The notes under the pieces are model-generated. The model had not been told where the DNA came from, did no database searches, and worked only from the letters and a program-made list of their open reading frames with translations. A program made the position numbers and the translations under genes. Below are positions 27,517 through 38,285 of a DNA stretch of 59,012 bases, piece by piece. This DNA comes from an uncultured Bacillales bacterium (lineage in GTDB: Bacteria > Bacillota_I > Bacilli_A > RF39 > UBA660). The stretch spans positions 1 to 59,012 of the forward strand of contig CAMUXV010000003.1 in the NCBI GenBank assembly GCA_947164795.1, read 5' to 3'. The first letter of the stretch is position 1, and each line of letters opens with the position of its first letter.

Positions 27517-30500
27517 ATGAAAAAGATATTTAATAAGTTTACAAAAATTTTATTACTTGTAGCTATGGTTATATCTGACTTAATGACTCCAATTAAGGTA
27601 TTTGCTGCTGAAGGTGAAGCAGTTACTCCTAAAAAGGGAGACGTTGGTATTAACGAAACTGTAAGTAATGAAGGTAGTGTAACTGTAACTAAGGGATCAA
27701 TTGAAAATCCTGGTGATGTTATGGTTACAAAGACAGTTAAGAAAAATGGTGAAGGAAAATTTACTGTCGAATTTGAAGTTAAAGGAAAGGATGCTGAAAG
27801 TACTACTACTGTTGTGAAACCAGTATATGTAGTTATTGTGTTAGATACTTCTGGTAGTATGATATGCGATGCTGATAATGGTTCATATGCATTTGATAAT
27901 TCTTTTTCTGCTGGTTGGGATAGTAGATCATATACAGCTGCTGATGGTGAAACAATCTATTGTAGTAATGCGAGATATCATTCTGATTACATATTGACAG
28001 ATAAATGGGAGAATGCAGTAAGTGGGGCTGTTACTTTTTCTGAAAATTTAGCTGACCTTGATAATACATATGCATCAGTAGTTACTTTTGCAAGTACTGC
28101 TACTACAGCTACTGCTTTTGCACATGGTGCTTTATCTGAAAGTGATTTTAGTCATCCAGTTGGTGGTACAAATTTAGAGCAAGGTCTTAGTAATGCTAAA
28201 AGTGCATTAGATGGTATTACAGATGCTAATGCTCAAAAATATATTGTTTTAATTGGTGATGGCGAACCTACTTTTTATGGAAGTGGTATTAAAGATAATG
28301 ATGGATACGATAATTATCCAACGGCAACATCAAATGCAAAAACTACTGCTGATAATATTAAGAATAGTGGTATAAATATTTTTACAATTGGATATGGTAT
28401 TGATAATAATACAAATGCTCAAAATATTTTGAAGTATGTTTCTTCTAATACTGATGCACAAGGAACATATACTGATAATGGTTATTATCAATCTGCCAAT
28501 TCATCTGGTATTGCTGGTACTTTACAAACTGTGTTTAATCAATTAAGTACTTCAATAGCGGGTACTGGAGCTACTTTAACAGATAATATTGGTTCTAGTT
28601 TTAGTGTTGATGCTAGTAGTTCTGATTTAATTACAGTAGTAGGAAGTAGTGTAAGTAATACGGATAAATTTGATATTACTGAAGATGTTACTAAGATTAG
28701 CTTCGATGTTGAAATTAATGGTGATGAAGCTGATGGATGGGTTAATGTCAATGAAGGATTTACTTTAACATACACTGACTACAATGGTGAAGAAAAAACT
28801 ATTACATATGGTTCTGATGAGCCACAGCCACAAGTTTATTGGGAAAGAAATACATATAATTATGTAATTAATTATTATAAAGATGAAGTTACTAATACTA
28901 GTGATAGTGAACATTATTTGGGAACTTCAGGTAATCTTAGTGCCTTTAATGGTGAAACAATTACTTTAACTGATGAACAAAAGAATGCTCATATAATAAC
29001 TGGTTATGAGTTATCTAGTAGTAATGTATATACAATTACTATTGATAAAACTAAAGATAATATTATTAATGTTTTATATACTTTAAAGAAATTTGATTAT
29101 AATGTTAATTACTACTATGATGGCATTAAAGATAATGATAAGAGTTATACTGAAAGTGATGTTACTTATGGCACTGTAGTTAATGCTAATGAATTATATT
29201 TTGCTAATACTGATGAATATTCACTTGATACAGAAAACTCTACTAGTGGTAATGTGACTATTAATAATAATGGTATTACGATTGATATTTATTATATAAA
29301 GAATAGTTATAGATATGAAGTTCATTATAATTTTAATGGCAATGAAGATACAGACTTTGCTAAGAATCCTGCTGCTTTATATGGTACAGAATTATTTGCT
29401 GGTGATTTCTATTTGACTAGTAGTGAGTTAGCTACTAATTATAGTGATTATTTCTTAGAACCAGGCAATAGTAAGAATACTGAGACTATTACTGTTGGTA
29501 ATAAAGAAAATAGATTAGATATTTATTATGTTAATACTAATTTTAGTAATAATGAAAGTATTACTAAGAGTGCTACTACTAATGGTAATAAGGTAACTAG
29601 TTCAAATCAGGTAGTTAATTATAAAATTAATTACAGTGATGTAATTAATAATGTTAGAGGGGGAGACACTGTTACTGTAACACTTGTTGATACTCTACCA
29701 TTTAAAGGAACTGTAACTGGTTTAACTGAAGGCTGCTCTTATGATAATGATAAAACTATTACATGTACTATTACTAAAACAGCTGATAAATTTGAGTCTC
29801 ATTATGAAGTAAGTGAAGAAGTTGAATATAGTGTAGTATATGAAGACTTTGCTGATATTAGTGCAAGTAGTAATCCAAAACTAGTTAATACTGTTAATGG
29901 TAAAACTACTGTTACTAGTGGAAATATTGTTAAAGAATCTGCTGGTGTAGAAGCTACTGCTGAAGTTCCAGTAGAAATTAGTGGTAACTTAATTGTTCAT
30001 CATTATACAAAAGATGAAGAAGGTAATAATGTTAGTGTATATAGTGACGAGAGAAGTAGTGCTTTAGTAGGAAGTGACTATGAAACTAACTATAGAACCG
30101 ATATTATTGGTTATACTGTTGATACTGATAGTATTCCTAGTAATAAAGATGGTAAGTATGCTGTTAATGATACAGAAGTTACTTATTACTATGTTAAAAA
30201 AGATGGTGTGATTGATAATCCTACTACTGTTAAATCTTTTGTAAGAGAAGAAGGACAAACAGAGAATATAGTAGAAAGTGTTAATAGTACATTTAATTAT
30301 ACTATTACTGGTACTGCTACTATTAAAGATTATATTGGTACTTATAAAGTTAGAGCTACTGATTATTTACCATATAAGTTAGATACTACTGATATGGAAA
30401 AACTTGACGAAAATGATAATATTTATAAAGTTAATGATAAATGTGTATACGATGGTAATATGACTATTGTATGTGAATCTGAAACTAAGAATATTACTAA

Positions 30501-32247
30501 AGATATGTATGATTCTAATAAAGAATATAGTGTATCTGAAACATTTGAATTGAGTATTAAATATTTAAATATTACTAATGAAACAGTAACTAATAGAGCT
30601 AAAATTGAAGTTATATTAGATAATAATAGTAAACCAAGTGAAACTACTACTGAAGATGTTACTGTTAAAGAAGGTAGTGTTAAAGCTGTATATTTAGAAA
30701 ATGGTAAAGAGACTAATGTTCTAGAAGAAGAATATACTAATACTGGTCTTGTTGGTACTAACTATGAAACTCCATTCAAACCTGTATTTGGTTATACTTT
30801 AGATAAAGATCCTGAAAATAAGAATGGTTCTTATGTTGAAGGTGAAACTTTAGTTAAGTATTTATATAATAAGAATAAAGGTACTTTTGTAGAGGAACCT
30901 ACTGCTGAAAAGAATGGACCAGATAGTGTAGCTAGTATTAATAGTGAATTTGAATATACTATTACTGGTAGCGCTAGTATTAAGGATTATGTTGGTACTT
31001 ATAAAGTTAAAGTAGTAGATACTTTACCATATAGTATTGATACTGAAAAATCTACTTTAGATAATAGATGTACTTATGATGGTAATAATACTATTACTTG
31101 TGTAAGTGAAGAAAAGACAGTTGCTGAAAGTGATTATGTAATTACTGAAGCTGGTGAAAAGGTATTTAACATTAAAGAGACATTTACTTTAAGTTTAGTA
31201 TATGTTGGTATTAAAACTGAAAGTGTTAAAAATAGTGCTAAAGTTGAAATTATCTTAGATGATAATAGTAAAGAAAGTCCAGTTGATACAGCAGAAACTG
31301 AAATTAAAAAAGGTACTGTTAAAGCTACTTATAATACTACTGATGGAGAAGAACTAGCTGATGCAGTTACTACTACTGGTATTGGTGGTAGTGAATATAC
31401 TACTGAAGCAAAAGAATTCTTTGGATATCATTTAAAAGAAGCTAAGGGGTATACAACTGGTACTTATGTAGCAGAAAAAGAAATACTTGTTGAATATATA
31501 TATGAATTAAATGATGGTGAAATTACTAATAATAAAGTAACTAAAGAAGGACCTGAAATTATTAGTGATGTTAATGACTATACGGAGTATGTATTTACTT
31601 ATGATGGTACTGTTAAGGATTATATTGGTAAAGCTACTCTTACACTAACTGATGTTCTTCCATATGAAATATATTCTGCTGGATATGATGATAGATGTGA
31701 TTATGATTTTGAAAATAATACATTTACTTGCAAAGTAGAATATGATATTACTGAAGAAGATTATGTTAATGGAGAATATAATATTCATGAAGAATTTTAC
31801 TTAGATGTTATCTATGGGGAACTTGATAGTGATGTTATTACTAATAAAGTAGATTCTAAGTTAGAACTTAGAAAAGTATATAAGGATTCTGAATCTTCAG
31901 TTGATAGTAAAGTACTTAAAGGTGAATTACTTGTAAGTTATGTTGATGAAGAGGGTAATGTACTTGATAGTTATACTATTACTGATTATGCTGGTCTTTA
32001 TTATGAAACTGAGGAAAGAGAATTTGATGGATATACATTTAAGAGTAATTCTGATAATGTTGAAGGATTCTTAATTGCTAATGAAACTATATATGTAGAA
32101 TATGTATATAGTAAGAATGTTGGTACATATGAAGAATTACCTCCTCAAACTGGTGTTGAAGATATTTCAGTAAATTATATTGGTTACGTACTAGCGGCTT
32201 TCTTATTTATCTTACTTGGTAAGAAGAAAGAAGTTAAAAATAATTAA
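27517..32247 (+). CDS. cell-wall-anchored adhesin: signal peptide, vWA domain, MucBP-like and isopeptide-type repeats, PPQTG sorting signal
   Basis: Signal peptide ...PIKVFAAEG. MIDAS motif VVIVLDTSGSM with GGTNL and GDGEPT. Seven G..Y.T....GY MucBP-like units. Four F.YTI...TD.LPY modules. C-terminus LPPQTG + hydrophobic stretch + KKKEVKNN (32137-32244). Confidence 0.8.
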   Translation: MKKIFNKFTKILLLVAMVISDLMTPIKVFAAEGEAVTPKKGDVGINETVSNEGSVTVTKGSIENPGDVMVTKTVKKNGEGKFTVEFEVKGKDAESTTTVVKPVYVVIVLDTSGSMICDADNGSYAFDNSFSAGWDSRSYTAADGETIYCSNARYHSDYILTDKWENAVSGAVTFSENLADLDNTYASVVTFASTATTATAFAHGALSESDFSHPVGGTNLEQGLSNAKSALDGITDANAQKYIVLIGDGEPTFYGSGIKDNDGYDNYPTATSNAKTTADNIKNSGINIFTIGYGIDNNTNAQNILKYVSSNTDAQGTYTDNGYYQSANSSGIAGTLQTVFNQLSTSIAGTGATLTDNIGSSFSVDASSSDLITVVGSSVSNTDKFDITEDVTKISFDVEINGDEADGWVNVNEGFTLTYTDYNGEEKTITYGSDEPQPQVYWERNTYNYVINYYKDEVTNTSDSEHYLGTSGNLSAFNGETITLTDEQKNAHIITGYELSSSNVYTITIDKTKDNIINVLYTLKKFDYNVNYYYDGIKDNDKSYTESDVTYGTVVNANELYFANTDEYSLDTENSTSGNVTINNNGITIDIYYIKNSYRYEVHYNFNGNEDTDFAKNPAALYGTELFAGDFYLTSSELATNYSDYFLEPGNSKNTETITVGNKENRLDIYYVNTNFSNNESITKSATTNGNKVTSSNQVVNYKINYSDVINNVRGGDTVTVTLVDTLPFKGTVTGLTEGCSYDNDKTITCTITKTADKFESHYEVSEEVEYSVVYEDFADISASSNPKLVNTVNGKTTVTSGNIVKESAGVEATAEVPVEISGNLIVHHYTKDEEGNNVSVYSDERSSALVGSDYETNYRTDIIGYTVDTDSIPSNKDGKYAVNDTEVTYYYVKKDGVIDNPTTVKSFVREEGQTENIVESVNSTFNYTITGTATIKDYIGTYKVRATDYLPYKLDTTDMEKLDENDNIYKVNDKCVYDGNMTIVCESETKNITKDMYDSNKEYSVSETFELSIKYLNITNETVTNRAKIEVILDNNSKPSETTTEDVTVKEGSVKAVYLENGKETNVLEEEYTNTGLVGTNYETPFKPVFGYTLDKDPENKNGSYVEGETLVKYLYNKNKGTFVEEPTAEKNGPDSVASINSEFEYTITGSASIKDYVGTYKVKVVDTLPYSIDTEKSTLDNRCTYDGNNTITCVSEEKTVAESDYVITEAGEKVFNIKETFTLSLVYVGIKTESVKNSAKVEIILDDNSKESPVDTAETEIKKGTVKATYNTTDGEELADAVTTTGIGGSEYTTEAKEFFGYHLKEAKGYTTGTYVAEKEILVEYIYELNDGEITNNKVTKEGPEIISDVNDYTEYVFTYDGTVKDYIGKATLTLTDVLPYEIYSAGYDDRCDYDFENNTFTCKVEYDITEEDYVNGEYNIHEEFYLDVIYGELDSDVITNKVDSKLELRKVYKDSESSVDSKVLKGELLVSYVDEEGNVLDSYTITDYAGLYYETEEREFDGYTFKSNSDNVEGFLIANETIYVEYVYSKNVGTYEELPPQTGVEDISVNYIGYVLAAFLFILLGKKKEVKNN

Positions 32248-33011: not shown

Positions 33012-33038
33012 TTAGCAATAAAGTGTTGACATTGCTAA
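33012..33038 (+). promoter_or_regulatory. CIRCE-like HrcA operator 1 (TTAGCAATA-N9-CATTGCTAA)
   Basis: A 9-9-9 inverted repeat that keeps the TTAGCA/TGCTAA ends of the CIRCE consensus TTAGCACTC-N9-GAGTGCTAA. It overlaps the -35 box. Confidence 0.6.
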
Positions 33039-33054
33039 ATAATAGTAATATAAT
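33026..33054 (+). promoter_or_regulatory. hrcA operon sigma-A promoter TTGACA-17-TATAAT
   Basis: TTGACA at 33026-33031 and TATAAT at 33049-33054. Confidence 0.6.
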
Positions 33055-33058
33055 AATA

Positions 33059-33086
33059 TTAGCAATCGAAAGATAATGATTGCTAA
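33059..33086 (+). promoter_or_regulatory. CIRCE-like HrcA operator 2 (TTAGCAATC-N10-GATTGCTAA)
   Basis: Perfect 9-bp inverted repeat starting 5 nt after the -10 box. The spacer is 10 nt rather than 9. Confidence 0.5.
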
Positions 33087-33100
33087 AGGAAGTGATTTCT

Positions 33101-34105
33101 TTGATAACAAACAGACAAAGAGAAATACTTAAGGAGATTGTTGAAGAATATATTAAGACTGCTAAACCAGTTAGTTCTAATCATATTTGTAAGAAACTTA
33201 AGTGTTCTTCTGCGACAATTAGAAATGAAATGGTGAGACTAGAAGAACTTCATTATCTAGAGAAAAATCATTTTGCATCGGGTAGAATACCTAGTGAAGA
33301 AGGGTATAAGTATTATGTTGATAATTTAATGGCTCCGAAAGATATGACTGGGGAAGATATGCTAAAACTTCAAACGATATTTAAGAATAATTCACTAGAC
33401 CTTAATGATACGATTAAGAAGAGTATTGAAATAGTTAGCGAAATTACTAATTATACGGCAATAGTACTTGGTAGTTCATCTAAAGAAAATAGACTTAAGA
33501 AAGTTGAAGTAGTACCACTAGAGGAAAACAGAGTATTATCAATAGTTATTACTGATAGAGGAGTAGTTCAGCATAAGATACTTAGTTTACCTGATAGAGT
33601 ATCTAATGAAGATGTTAAGAAGACAGTAGAACTAATTAATAAGTTAGTAGTGGGTACTCCGATTAATGAAGTTAGTGAGAAGTTAGAGTATGAAGTTAAA
33701 CCTATTATTAGAGATTATGTTAGTCAGTATGAAGCTTTATATAATACTTTTTATGATGCATTTCATGAATTTACGGTAGAAAGAAATAATAATACTTATT
33801 TTGGTGGTAGAACTAATATGCTTAAACAACCAGAATTTAATAGTATTGATAAGGTAAAAGAAATACTTAGTAAGTTTGAAGATGTTGATAGTATTTCGAA
33901 GATGAGAGAAGAAGAGAATGGTATTAACATTTATGTTGGTAGTGAGACTGAACTTATGGATGATGTATCTGTTATAAAGACTAAATATAATGTAAATGGT
34001 GAAGAAGGTACGATTGCTATTATAGGTCCTAAAAGAATGGAATATGGTAGAGTTGTAGCACTTCTTGATTATATAAAAAATAACCTAGGAGGTAATGATG
34101 AGTAA
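33101..34105 (+). CDS. hrcA: heat-inducible transcription repressor HrcA
   Basis: TTG start 8 nt after AAGGAAG; the track start at 33080 lies inside operator 2. (L)[25 protein letters not shown] winged-helix N-terminus. Gene order hrcA-grpE-dnaK-dnaJ. Confidence 0.85.
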
Positions 34106-34742
34106 AGATAAAAAGAAAAAGATTGAAGAAGTAAAAGAAGAAAACTGTGGATGCACTGAAGGTAAAGAATGTACATGCGGTGATGGATGCAATTGTGGAG
34201 ACTCTTGTACATGTGGTGATTCTTGTGAATGTGGTGAAGGGTGTACATGTGGTGATAATTGCTCTTGTCATGAAGAATCTAATATAGATGACGAAAGAGA
34301 ATTATTAGGTAAGAGAATTAAAGATTTAGAAGAAGCTCTTCTTAGAAGCCAAGCTGAACTTATTAATTATAAGAAGAGAAAAGATGAAGAGACTGATAGG
34401 ATTATTAAATATGCTGAAGAAGACATATTAAAAGGATTCTTACCAATACTTGATAATTTTGAAAGGGCAATTGGTATGGATGATGATAATCTTAAAGATG
34501 ATGTGTCTAAGTTTCTTGAGGGATTTAAACTTATGTATAAACAAATACAAGAATTACTTGGTAAGTTTGATGTTAAGGAGATTGATGCTTTGAATAAAGA
34601 ATTTGATCCCGCTATTCATAATGCAGTAGCTATGGATAAGAAAGAAGGCGTTAAGTCTGGAACTGTGACGGAGGTACTTCAAAAAGGTTATATGTACAAA
34701 GATAGAGTTCTAAGAACAGCGATGGTAAAAGTTAATGAATAA
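34095..34742 (+). CDS. grpE: nucleotide exchange factor GrpE with Cys-rich N-terminal extension
   Basis: AGGAGG RBS. Canonical GrpE helix and beta domain ([52 protein letters not shown]) preceded by the repeat described separately. Confidence 0.85.
34146..34271 (+). repeat. tandem 18-nt coding repeat specifying (C-x-C-G-D/E-x)n
   Basis: [42 protein letters not shown] read directly from the translation. Confidence 0.85.
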
Positions 34743-34965
34743 AGAGGTTATTAAAGAAATAATATATATTGCTATTGCAATTATACTTGCTATCTTAGCT
34801 ATTAAATTTGTTATATGGGCTTTACCTGTAATATTAATAGGGTTACTTGCAATATTTATTTATATTTCAATTAAGAAAGATAAGTATAAGAAAAGTAATA
34901 TAAGTAAAAGTACAGATAAGAATAAAAGGATGAAAGTTATACATGAATTTGATGATAAGGATTAA
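34735..34965 (+). CDS. small two-TM membrane protein (hypothetical)
   Basis: The ATG overlaps the grpE stop (ATGAATAA). Two hydrophobic helices and a K-rich tail. Confidence 0.5.
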
Positions 34966-34967
34966 CT

Positions 34968-35270
34968 ATGAATAATATAGAATTATTATTTCAAGCTCTT
35001 GGTATTATATCTAGTATATCAGGAAATGAATATAGTTTAGATGATATATTTATTGGTAGTAATCCTAAGATATTTGATTATTCTAATAGACTTCTTTTTG
35101 ATATATTAGACTTACTTGATAAAGGTTATAGTGAAGAAGATATTATTAGATTAATTAATGATTGTGAGTTTAATGGTATTAATGATTTAAATGATGAGGA
35201 AAAGAATTATTTAAAGAGTGATGCTAAGAAGACTTTAAAAAAGATTATAAATAATAGAAAAGGAGAATGA
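34968..35270 (+). CDS. small acidic hypothetical protein
   Basis: Starts 2 nt after the previous stop. Its stop overlaps the dnaK RBS region. Confidence 0.45.
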
Positions 35271-35275
35271 TATAT

Positions 35276-37111
35276 ATGAGTAAAATTATAGGAATTGACT
35301 TAGGTACCACAAATAGTTGTGTTGCCGTATATGAAGGGGGAGAGGCTAAAGTTATTACTAATCCCGAAGGAGCTAGAACTACTCCTTCAGTAGTAGCTTT
35401 TAAGAATGGAGATATTATTGTAGGTCAAAAAGCTAAGAACCAAATGGTTACGAATAAGGATACAATATCTTCTATTAAGAGAAAAATGGGTACTAGTGAG
35501 AAAGTGGAGGCTAATGATAAGAAGTATACTCCAGAAGAAATATCTGCAATGATACTAGGAGACCTTAAAAAGACTGCGGAAGCTTATCTTGGTGAGACTG
35601 TAAGTAAAGCTGTTATTACAGTACCTGCTTACTTTAATGATAGTCAAAGACAAGCTACGAAAAATGCTGGTAAGATAGCAGGACTTGAAGTAGAGAGAAT
35701 TATTAATGAACCTACTGCTGCTGCTTTAGCATATGGCCTTGATAAACAAGATAAGATGCAAACAGTACTTGTTTATGACCTTGGAGGTGGTACATTTGAT
35801 GTATCTATCCTAGAATTAGGTGATGGTGTATTTGAAGTTAAATCTACTAGTGGTAATAATAAACTAGGAGGAGACGACTTTGATGAGAGAATCATGGACT
35901 GGATGGTTAAGGAATTTAAGAAAGAATCTGGTATAGACTTATCTAATGATAAGATGGCTATGCAAAGAGTTAAAGATGCTGCAGAGAAAGCTAAGAAAGA
36001 TTTAAGTGGTATGACTACTACTGAGATATCTTTACCGTTCATTTCTCAAGGAGAAGAAGGACCTATTCATTTGAATATGAGTTTAACTAGAGCTAAATTT
36101 GAAGATTTAATTAGTGATTTAGTAGAGTCTACTACTGAACCGGTTAGAAAAGCTTTAAAGGATGCAGGACTTACTGCAAAAGATATTGATAAAGTTTTAC
36201 TAGTAGGTGGATCTACTAGAATACCTTGTGTACAAGAACTTGTTAAGAAAGAGCTTGGTAAAGAACCTTCGAAAGAGGTTAACCCTGATGAAGTTGTTGC
36301 TATGGGTGCTTCTATTCAAGGTGGAGTACTTACAGGAGATGTTAATGATATCGTACTTCTTGATGTTACACCATTATCTCTTGGTATTGAAACACTTGGT
36401 GGCGTTATGACGGTTCTTATTCCTAGAAATACGACTATTCCTACTAGTAAGAGTCAGGTATTTTCAACAGCTGCTGATAATCAACCAGCAGTAGATATTC
36501 ATGTATTACAAGGTGAAAGACCAATGGCTAATGATAATAAGACACTTGGTAACTTCCAACTTACAAATATTCCACCTGCTCCTAGAGGTGTACCACAAAT
36601 AGAGGTTTCATTTGATATTGATGCTAATGGTATTGTTAATGTTAAAGCTAAAGACTTAGGTACAAATAAAGAACAATCTATTACAATTACCGCCACTAAT
36701 ACTTTAAGTGATGAAGAAATTGATAAGATGATGAAAGAAGCTGAGAAAAATAAAGAAGCAGATGCTAAAAAGAAAGAAGTAGCAGATGCTAAGAATGATG
36801 CTGAACAGGTTGTGTTTATGACAGAGAAAGCTCTTAAAGATTTAGGTGAAAAAGTGTCTGATAGTGATAAAAAAGAAGCAGAAGAGTTAATGGAAGAGAC
36901 TAAGAAAGCAATAGAGACTGAAGATGTTGAAAAGATTAATAAAGCTAAGGATAAATTATTAGAGAAAGCTAATGCTCTAGCTACTAAGGTTTATGAAGAG
37001 GCTGCAAAAAATAATCAAAGTACTTCTGAAACTACTGAAGAACCTAAAGAAGAAAAAAAGACTAAGAAAAATGATGATGGCGTAGTAGATGCTGAATATG
37101 AAGAAAAATAA
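35276..37111 (+). CDS. dnaK: molecular chaperone DnaK
   Basis: [14 protein letters not shown] (ATG 9 nt after AGGAGA), [33 protein letters not shown]. Confidence 0.95.
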
Positions 37112-37163: not shown

Positions 37164-38285
37164 ATGAATAAAAGAGATTATTATGAGGTTTTAGGAGTTT
37201 CTAAAACTGCCAGTCAAGATGAGATTAAGTCAGCATTTAGAAAACTTGCTAAAAAGTATCATCCGGATGTTTCAAAAGAAGAAAATGCTGCGGAAAAGTT
37301 TAAGGAAGCACAAGAAGCTTATGCAGTGTTATCTGATGAAAATAAGAGAAAACAATATGATCAATTTGGGCATGCAGCATTTACGAATAGTCAGGGTGGA
37401 TTCTCTGGATACGAAGGCTTTGACTTTGGAAGTATGGATGATATATTAAGTGAAGTACTTAAAAATTTTGGCTTTCATACAGGAGGAAGTTATTCTAGTT
37501 CGAGGGGAAATCGAAGACAAGATGGTTCCGACTTATTATATCGGATGACAATATCATTTGATGAAGCTGTGCATGGTACGAAGAGGGATATTAAGATAGA
37601 TGTTGAAGATGAATGCTCGGAATGTGATGGTAAAGGTGGTTTTGGTAGTCATACATGCTCTGAATGTAAAGGTTCTGGTACGGTAACTAGACAACAAGCT
37701 TCTTTATTTGGCTCATTCTTATCTAGGACTACTTGTCCTAAATGTGGGGGGACTGGTACTTCTTTTGATAAAACATGTACTATATGTCATGGAAGTGGAA
37801 GAGAAGTTAAGAATAAAACTTTAACTGTTACTATTCCTAAAGGGGTAGATACTGGTAATAGAATAAGACTTGCTGGTAAGGGTGAAGCTGGTACTAATGG
37901 TGGTTATCCAGGAGACCTTTATATTGAGTTTTCAGTTAAAGATGATGAATTTTTCCAAAGAGATGGTAATGATATATATGCTGTAATTCCTTTAACTATT
38001 ACAGAAGCCGCTCTTGGCTGTAAAAAGATGGTTCCTACTATTCATGGTAATGTAGAACTAACCATTCCAGAAGGTACTAAAAATAATACGAGACTTAGAC
38101 TTAAAGGTAAAGGAATTGATTCAGATATTAATAGTAGAAAAGGGGATATGTATGTTATTACTAATGTTATTATTCCTAGCAAACTAAATAGAAAGCAAAA
38201 AGAACTATTTAAAGAACTATCTGATACTGATTTAGATAATGAAAATGAATTTAAAGATTATGAAAAAATACTAAAGAAATATTAG
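37164..38285 (+). CDS. dnaJ: molecular chaperone DnaJ
   Basis: J domain (DYYEVLGV...KKYHPD), G/F region, four CxxCxGxG zinc motifs. Confidence 0.95.

Follow-up and report, generated by a model that had tools for sequence, protein, structure and literature searches.

A metallothionein-like cysteine array at the N-terminus of GrpE in uncultured gut bacteria: a candidate metal-thiolate tail

Why should GrpE, the nucleotide exchange factor of the chaperone DnaK, carry a tail segment in which every third residue is a cysteine? The question is raised by a 59,012-nucleotide stretch of DNA of an uncultured Bacillales bacterium (assembly GCA_947164795.1, contig CAMUXV010000003.1, positions 1 to 59,012 of the forward strand; this whole stretch is called the window here), for which a sequence-only reading had proposed a metal- or redox-sensing module fused directly to GrpE. 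The gene grpE (34098..34742, + strand; 214 codons plus stop) encodes a Lys/Glu-rich leader (34098..34145, + strand), visible in the translation and kept in close relatives, then the Cys array (34146..34271, + strand), and finally the canonical GrpE part (34272..34739, + strand). The metallothionein-like array is built of a cap, units of the type G-D/E-x-C-x-C and a CSCH end, in total CxCxxxxxCxC-(GDxCxC)5-H; the 14 Cys and one His in 42 residues (33 % Cys) reported earlier for positions 34146-34271 proved exact in coordinates and translation. With middling confidence we read the N-terminal tail as a metal-thiolate domain, which would act as a metal and oxidant sink co-induced under stress and possibly also as a switch.

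The array is translated together with GrpE, because the reading frame has no internal start, the ribosome-binding site and the overlap with hrcA fit the annotated start, and an internal promoter was not detected. In-frame ATG, GTG or TTG codons are present only at codons 1, 2 and 128 of the grpE open reading frame (ORF), the last one being the Met of GMDDDN, and this bears out the earlier claim that the Cys cluster is necessarily made with GrpE. An alternative ATG at 34095 would extend the gene to 215 codons; the second ATG at 34098 has the more favourable spacing, lies 5 nt behind the ribosome-binding site AGGAGG (34087..34092, + strand) and is also the start of a database protein (P0001) that is identical to the window GrpE across 214 amino acids. 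The grpE start is overlapped by the 3' end of hrcA, whose stop codon occupies 34103-34105, and a promoter scan revealed no good promoter-like site between hrcA and the array.

A chance origin of the array is excluded by its setting: Cys accounts for 0.93 % of the residues in the long ORFs of the window versus 33 % in the array, and an inspection of the six frames of the 59 kb showed no second Cys-rich stretch that is genuinely coding. No other CxC-rich coding ORF was found in the window or within 4 kb on either side of grpE at the 80 related loci described below. The window has a G+C content of 27.5 %. On the DNA level the array comprises seven 18-nt units. Tandem Repeats Finder detected an 18-nt period (34194-34256, 3.5 copies, 75 % matches) and also a 36-nt period, for which a repeat search aligned four copies. 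The slippage-prone copy number expected from the periodicity stood insofar as the unit number varies among relatives, but not on the DNA level: with copies only 64-75 % identical, the array is a diverged repeat and not a perfect, hypermutable slippage tract. A mixed use of Cys codons may lower the identity of the DNA repeats. The share of TGC among the Cys codons was 33 % (76/233) in the arrays of the window and its orthologues and 15 % (26/169) in the other long ORFs of the window.

Judged by its sequence, the part downstream of the array is a bona fide, ordinary GrpE, for which nucleotide exchange on DnaK is predicted. Pfam PF01025 covers residues 60-214 (E=7.7e-45), the NCBIfam equivalog PRK14140 reaches 142.7 bits versus a cut-off of 137, and the core, consisting of a short linker, a long stalk helix, a helical bundle and the beta domain, aligns to the solved structures 4ANI (72-212) and 1DKG (50-192). 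The core contains no Cys. Residue 68 matches residue 50 of E. coli GrpE in the structure-sequence alignment, and from this offset it follows that the array sits where the disordered tail of E. coli GrpE lies. That tail binds the substrate-binding domain of DnaK and transiently occupies the substrate site, the contact being made by a short hydrophobic motif with Glu on both sides (PMC12915176). The tail of the window protein resembles this pseudo-substrate tail (17-IIM-19) in location, acidity and flexible attachment to the stalk (PMC12915176), but the hydrophobic triplet is not evident and the Cys array replaces the middle of the tail; aliphatic residues outside the array are I and V in the leader (IEEV, Glu-flanked) and I, L and L behind the array (NIDDERELL). 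GrpE N-termini are described in a 2025 review as variable, disordered, short and acidic, with Cys arrays and metals unmentioned (PMC12987570). AlphaFold2 modelled the array as coil with predicted local distance difference test (pLDDT) values of 35-44, from an alignment of 28 sequences and within a poor overall model, and placed the array end about 4 residues ahead of the predicted stalk helix. Low-confidence coil is usual for metallothionein domains modelled without metal (PMC13578184).

Is the array a peculiarity of one genome? When 5.8 billion proteins were searched with the full-length GrpE, 6685 matches were obtained, and the best 120 of them (68-100 % identity, 192-234 amino acids) all carried an N-terminal CxC array with variable counts of 7-21 Cys, so that the extension is present throughout the closest homologues. 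With each GTDB species represented by one genome, a scan provided 80 loci, all from uncultured gut metagenome-assembled genomes (MAGs) labelled Bacilli, Tenericutes, Mycoplasmatota or Clostridiales, which may belong to RF39/RFN20-like gut lineages (PMC7301438). GrpE had at least four N-terminal Cys at 27 of these loci and 0-1 at the others. In a neighbour-joining tree of the GrpE cores the array fills one large clade including the window, with a single loss (L012), and it is also found on a few neighbouring branches (L028, L034, L042, L027/31/32). The array is a conserved trait of whole clades, present in well over a hundred relatives. The probability of an assembly or sequencing artefact is practically nil, considering that more than 100 distinct arrays from independent assemblies (NCBI, ENA, JGI, Logan) are all in frame with GrpE.

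The manner in which the array varies is more informative than its presence. Among equal-length orthologues, Cys identity was 14/14, while the spacers were 46-61 % and the rest of the protein 92-97 % identical; the Cys codons alternate between TGT and TGC. This pattern indicates strong purifying selection on the Cys residues together with a fast evolution of the spacers. The Cys-Cys spacings are dominated by 2 (567 cases) and 4 (360 cases), corresponding to (CxCxxx)n. Proteins of at least about 80 % identity to each other possess 8, 10, 12, 14 or 16 Cys, and from these steps of two it follows that whole 6-residue units are gained and lost.

Which known proteins look like this? The likeness to metallothioneins in composition and motif, to which the sequence-only reading had pointed, was confirmed on 119 distinct modules (4919 residues), with 33.0 % Cys, 29 % Asp+Glu, 2.6 % His, 0.2 % aromatic and less than 1.2 % aliphatic residues. 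The array shares with metallothioneins a Cys content of about 30 %, the CxC motifs, the lack of aromatic residues (no F, Y or W in the window's array), fixed Cys between fast spacers and a modular copy number. Classical metallothioneins are small stand-alone proteins, whereas the array is the N-terminal segment of a GrpE of 214 amino acids. Among PDB sequences the array came closest to a Cd-metallothionein of a snail (6QK5, E=1.3e-3), with which it has the pattern CxCGxxCxCGEGCTC in common, and the best Pfam match of the window array was Metallothio PF00131 (14.9 bits versus a cut-off of 23, E=0.029). The tail of one relative (P0248) passes Metallothio_2 PF01439 with 27.2 bits versus 23; Pfam metallothionein membership is inconsistent across the clade. 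In homologous tails, His joins or replaces Cys in CHC units and HxH runs, with up to 11 His. The similarity to metallothioneins is probably convergent.

The array may also hold iron, either in an oxygen-labile iron-sulfur (Fe-S) cluster or as an Fe(II) store, instead of Zn, Cu or Cd. The anaerobic hosts, the high Cys density and the neighbouring Asp and Glu, which could ligate harder metals, would agree with this. We consider iron unlikely, since the CxC-x3 spacing is not the CxxC or CxxCxxC typical of Fe-S sites, the Cys number is variable, no Fe-S family in Pfam or NCBIfam was matched and the nearest matches are Zn/Cd/Cu metallothioneins. Two further family assignments were rejected. A Hsp33-type redox switch, defined by the Hsp33 fold with a C-terminal four-Cys zinc centre of the form CxC...CxxC, was not recognized: Pfam and NCBIfam gave no Hsp33 domain, and of more than 1000 Cys-Cys spacings just 2 are of the CxxC type. 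The CxxCxGxG motif of the DnaJ-type zinc finger (PF00684) is not in GrpE, it is present in the neighbouring dnaJ.

A period of six residues is also that of the hexapeptide-repeat left-handed beta-helix, with its repeats of the form [LIV]-[GAED]-x2-[STAV]-x, and the array might be a short coil of this kind or another metal-free structural or interaction repeat. A library-wide HMMER search with the 49-residue array retrieved mostly hexapeptide-repeat (Hexapep) proteins with CxLGDx units, in register with the array and with L in place of C, and weak matches to LpxD and hexapeptide transferases appeared in NCBIfam and PDB. These proteins (P0121-P0133, P0136, P0139-P0143 and others) are small, have one Cys per repeat and apparently stem from diverse sources; their CxLGDx repeats align in register with the CxCGDx units of GrpE. 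The correspondence in register is probably a coincidence of periodicity, and because of it composition-driven searches are misleading here. The hexapeptide-repeat family PF00132 was rejected for the array, which gave no match at E up to 10 where the CxLGDx proteins reached E=1e-24. A metal-free repeat appears very unlikely to us: the aliphatic core residue of a beta-helix is missing, Pfam Metallothio matches where Hexapep does not, many homologues have only 2-4 units, which is too few, and AlphaFold2 predicts coil.

Besides the hexapeptide proteins, the library-wide search retrieved a 194-amino acid non-GrpE protein (P0135; locus L081, 698-1282, where its gene comes after ychF) with CxC arrays at both ends. 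A word-indexed search with the array alone returned 2 candidates and no matches, the index being evidently unsuited to such a composition. A search based on P0135 revealed about 70 small proteins (P0156-P0228; 130-220 amino acids) and 46 further GrpEs. The small proteins had no match in Pfam or NCBIfam, and the few named members are listed as 'hypothetical protein [Clostridia bacterium]'. Common to them is a conserved core some 75 residues long (ENDLNVAIIK..LL.NE.CCTC.NI.L.NDG.I.TSFLG.HNPYIV.QLEKAQK.YFK.LKKALK), flanked by Cys- or His-rich tails with up to 36 Cys; some members are tail-less and one (P0207) has a His-run tail. A moderate AlphaFold2 model of the core shows four strands and a helix (pLDDT 72-86), for which Foldseek found no fold match in the PDB with E below 0.8. 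The members of the P0135 family probably bind metal themselves, independently of GrpE.

The 46 further GrpEs have 9-33 N-terminal Cys, up to 11 His and cores 28-69 % identical to that of the window. The distant Cys-rich GrpE loci have a G+C content of 34-44 % and the gene order lepA-hemN-hrcA-grpE-dnaK-dnaJ. In one lineage (P0253-P0258, P0272; loci L085-L087), extreme GrpE variants of 256-273 amino acids are extended N-terminally by about 135 residues, which include 29-33 Cys and 10-11 His and close with a HHKHHKH run; their core is about 33 % identical to that of the window and their genes lie in a hrcA-grpE-dnaK operon of about 40 % G+C. An element E[DEN][NH]KC[SN][DEP]xCTC was found in 33 of 145 GrpE tails and in 8 of 74 P0135-family members, but never in shuffled sequences, and therefore the likeness between the GrpE tails and the P0135 family goes partly beyond composition. 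The window's own array lacks the element.

Could the array be without function, low-complexity sequence that expanded neutrally in a disordered tail that tolerates it? The N-terminus of GrpE is known to vary and to be disordered (PMC12987570), the unit number drifts, and one member of the clade (L012) does without the array. The chances of this explanation are very slim, even slightly below those of a metal-free repeat. Cys is rare in this genome (0.93 %) and chemically costly, every Cys of the array is invariant despite spacer divergence and codon turnover, the trait persists over many species-level genomes and over GrpE lineages with cores only 28-35 % identical, and the element with its specific non-Cys residues, shared with the P0135 family, does not arise in shuffled sequences.

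When would the array be made? The gene order is hrcA, grpE, two small ORFs of 76 and 100 amino acids, dnaK and dnaJ. The promoter of the hrcA-grpE-dnaK-dnaJ operon (33012..33086 including operators, + strand) matched 12/12 positions in the promoter scan, with TTGACA at 33026-33031, a spacer of 17 nt and TATAAT at 33049-33054, a perfect consensus. It is flanked by two repeats resembling the controlling inverted repeat of chaperone expression (CIRCE), the first at 33012-33038 (TTAGCAAT-N11-ATTGCTAA), the second at 33059-33086 (TTAGCAATC-N10-GATTGCTAA); the inverted-repeat search gave these 2 matches versus 0.04 expected. The canonical CIRCE (TTAGCACTC-N9-GAGTGCTAA) had 0 matches in a search allowing up to 3 mismatches, and the operators of the window differ from it in one arm position and in the spacing. 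The sequence TTAGCA-N12-17-TGCTAA, in tandem or as a single copy, was located upstream of hrcA at 79 of 87 related loci. The repressor gene hrcA itself (33080..34105, + strand) was assigned by Pfam HrcA PF01628 (E=3.2e-54) and the HrcA DNA-binding winged helix. Its annotated start codon, TTG 33080, falls inside the second operator, hence translation probably begins at GTG 33092 or TTG 33101, both downstream of that operator. As the Cys-bearing GrpE is encoded in an operon with HrcA-type operators, we infer that it is under heat-shock control.

What would such a tail do? In the reading we favour, the metal-thiolate domain, the tail would fold around d10 ions, i.e. Zn(II), Cu(I) or Cd(II), through the 14 thiolates and the terminal His, so that each GrpE dimer would bear two metal clusters at its N-terminal stalk tip. 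The domain would be produced in step with the chaperones, because the consensus promoter of the operon is flanked by CIRCE-like operators. Stationed at the DnaK machine, it would under proteotoxic stress chiefly take up metals, as a capacity-type sink, and secondarily oxidants and electrophiles. Loading, unloading or oxidation would switch the array between a compact cluster and a flexible chain of 42 residues, and this change would probably tune the release of substrate by DnaK as well, an effect that is plausible because the array sits in the tail position. Metal binding, the choice of metal and any effect on DnaK are predictions drawn from the sequences. A variation in unit number is expected of a capacity function, as in modular metallothioneins. 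The free variation observed among the arrays is explained no worse by a capacity-type sink than by a precise sensor; a sink is favoured because the unit number varies freely and His accompanies Cys.

Several observations weigh against the metal-thiolate domain. The window array stays below the threshold in all Pfam metallothionein families, among them PF00131, PF01439, PF02068 and PF02069, and in those of NCBIfam, and the full protein has no such match. With 29 % Asp+Glu the array is much more acidic than classical metallothioneins, a feature that would make clusters of an anionic character still more negative. The AlphaFold2 model, with a mean pLDDT of 53 and a mis-modelled beta domain, says little. 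Finally, in several lineages the array is steadily attached to GrpE, which suggests a function linked to the DnaK cycle more than bulk buffering.

The last point leads to a dedicated regulatory switch, following the logic of Hsp33 or GRPEL2, in which metal storage would be incidental. The array would be reduced or Zn-loaded in the anaerobic cytosol; oxygen, oxidants or electrophiles would cause disulfides, possibly between the protomers at the stalk tip, and the tail would be rigidified or re-tethered, slowing the release of substrate from DnaK or the nucleotide exchange. The array is located at the tail that in E. coli touches the substrate-binding domain of DnaK (PMC12915176) and ends just before the predicted stalk helix, the hosts are represented by MAGs of gut anaerobes, and the module stays on GrpE even between lineages with a core identity as low as 28-35 %. 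Redox control is documented for GrpE-type exchange factors, namely for GRPEL2 at Cys87 (PMC6089081) and for Mge1 by Met oxidation (PMC5807549; see also PMC12987570). Nevertheless, we hold such a switch to be doubtful, if possible. A precise switch normally has a fixed set of ligands, but here anything between 4 and 33 Cys is found, with different counts even in near-identical proteins, the clade member L012 lacks the array entirely, and the module is also attached to the unrelated P0135 family. The enrichment of His points to metal ligation rather than to thiol chemistry alone, since His is a metal ligand and not a redox group. The variable Cys number also separates the array from redox-coupled chaperones in general: the zinc centre of Hsp33, the zinc fingers of DnaJ, Cys87 of GRPEL2 and Met155 of Mge1 couple chaperones to the redox state through Cys/Zn or oxidisable residues, using one residue or a fixed four-Cys site in a folded domain, while the GrpE array presents a variable number of Cys in a disordered tail.

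Parallels to the metal-thiolate tail exist outside the GrpE family. The HspA protein of Helicobacter pylori, a GroES, has a tail with about 8 His and 4 Cys. HspA is the nearest functional analogy, being a housekeeping co-chaperone under heat-shock regulation that, besides acting as a chaperone, binds Ni with a lineage-specific tail (PMC8779794, PMC5116745). In HspA the tail is C-terminal and dominated by His, the two segments have no sequence relationship, and metal binding is proven for HspA while it is predicted for the GrpE array. The TrxA-Mt chimera of Runella aurantiaca is a precedent for the fusion of a bacterial metallothionein to a redox or proteostasis protein, and its metallothionein part, like the GrpE array, is modelled by AlphaFold with low confidence (PMC13578184). 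In contrast to the array, that domain is a SmtA homologue with about 16 % Cys and a zinc-finger-like fold, positioned C-terminal of the thioredoxin; similarity of the GrpE array to SmtA or BmtA was not found in the Pfam searches.

The 76-amino acid ORF between grpE and dnaK (34735..34965, + strand), taken from the ORF list, has a long hydrophobic stretch and is a predicted membrane protein. Many relatives have a clear homologue there, irrespective of a Cys array in their GrpE; the ORF is a conserved, predicted small membrane protein of the heat-shock operon with no link to the Cys module. The acidic ORF of 100 amino acids that comes next (34968..35270, + strand) had no Pfam match, and only some of the relatives have an ORF of comparable length there. 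The dnaK gene (35276..37111, + strand) lies in an ORF that opens at 35267, with 35276 as the likely start, and dnaJ (37164..38285, + strand) encodes four intact CxxCxGxG zinc-finger motifs. On the other side of the operon, at 27517-32247 of the window, the sequence reads as a predicted surface protein of 1576 amino acids with a signal-like N-terminus, repeated domains and a vWA-like region. Its C-terminus shows PPQTG, then a hydrophobic stretch, then KKK, and resembles a sortase sorting signal. Such a signal would imply a cell wall, though related MAGs are labelled 'Tenericutes'.

Has such a GrpE been described before? The sequence-only reading knew of no example, and the full-text literature on GrpE in combination with cysteine-rich, metallothionein or metallothionein-like yielded nothing relevant, the term 'cysteine-rich' in GrpE papers referring to DnaJ. 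The GrpEs with a Cys array carry no special name in the databases searched. We found no publication describing the fusion of a metallothionein-like segment to GrpE; GrpE, such arrays and metal-binding tails of co-chaperones are each already known.

GrpE is an essential and intensively studied co-chaperone, whose tail was only recently shown to engage the substrate-binding site of DnaK (PMC12915176). A conserved array of 14-33 Cys at this DnaK-contacting tail would add an input of metal load or redox state, regulatory or protective, to the bacterial Hsp70 system. The trait occurs in whole clades of abundant uncultured gut bacteria, and it has led to a second, unannotated protein family with the same tails, the P0135 family. 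What makes the finding noteworthy is that the array sits in the tail in contact with DnaK, is broadly conserved and can easily be tested. A more far-reaching proposal, which we put forward tentatively and regard as rather improbable, is that the array belongs to a mobile, hitherto unrecognised family of bacterial metal-binding domains shared with the P0135 proteins and serves on GrpE as a metal- or redox-gated tether, folded when metal-loaded and extended when apo or oxidised, that controls whether the tail reaches the substrate-binding domain of DnaK. If true, this gated tether would be a direct input of metals and oxidants into the Hsp70 cycle of anaerobic gut Firmicutes.

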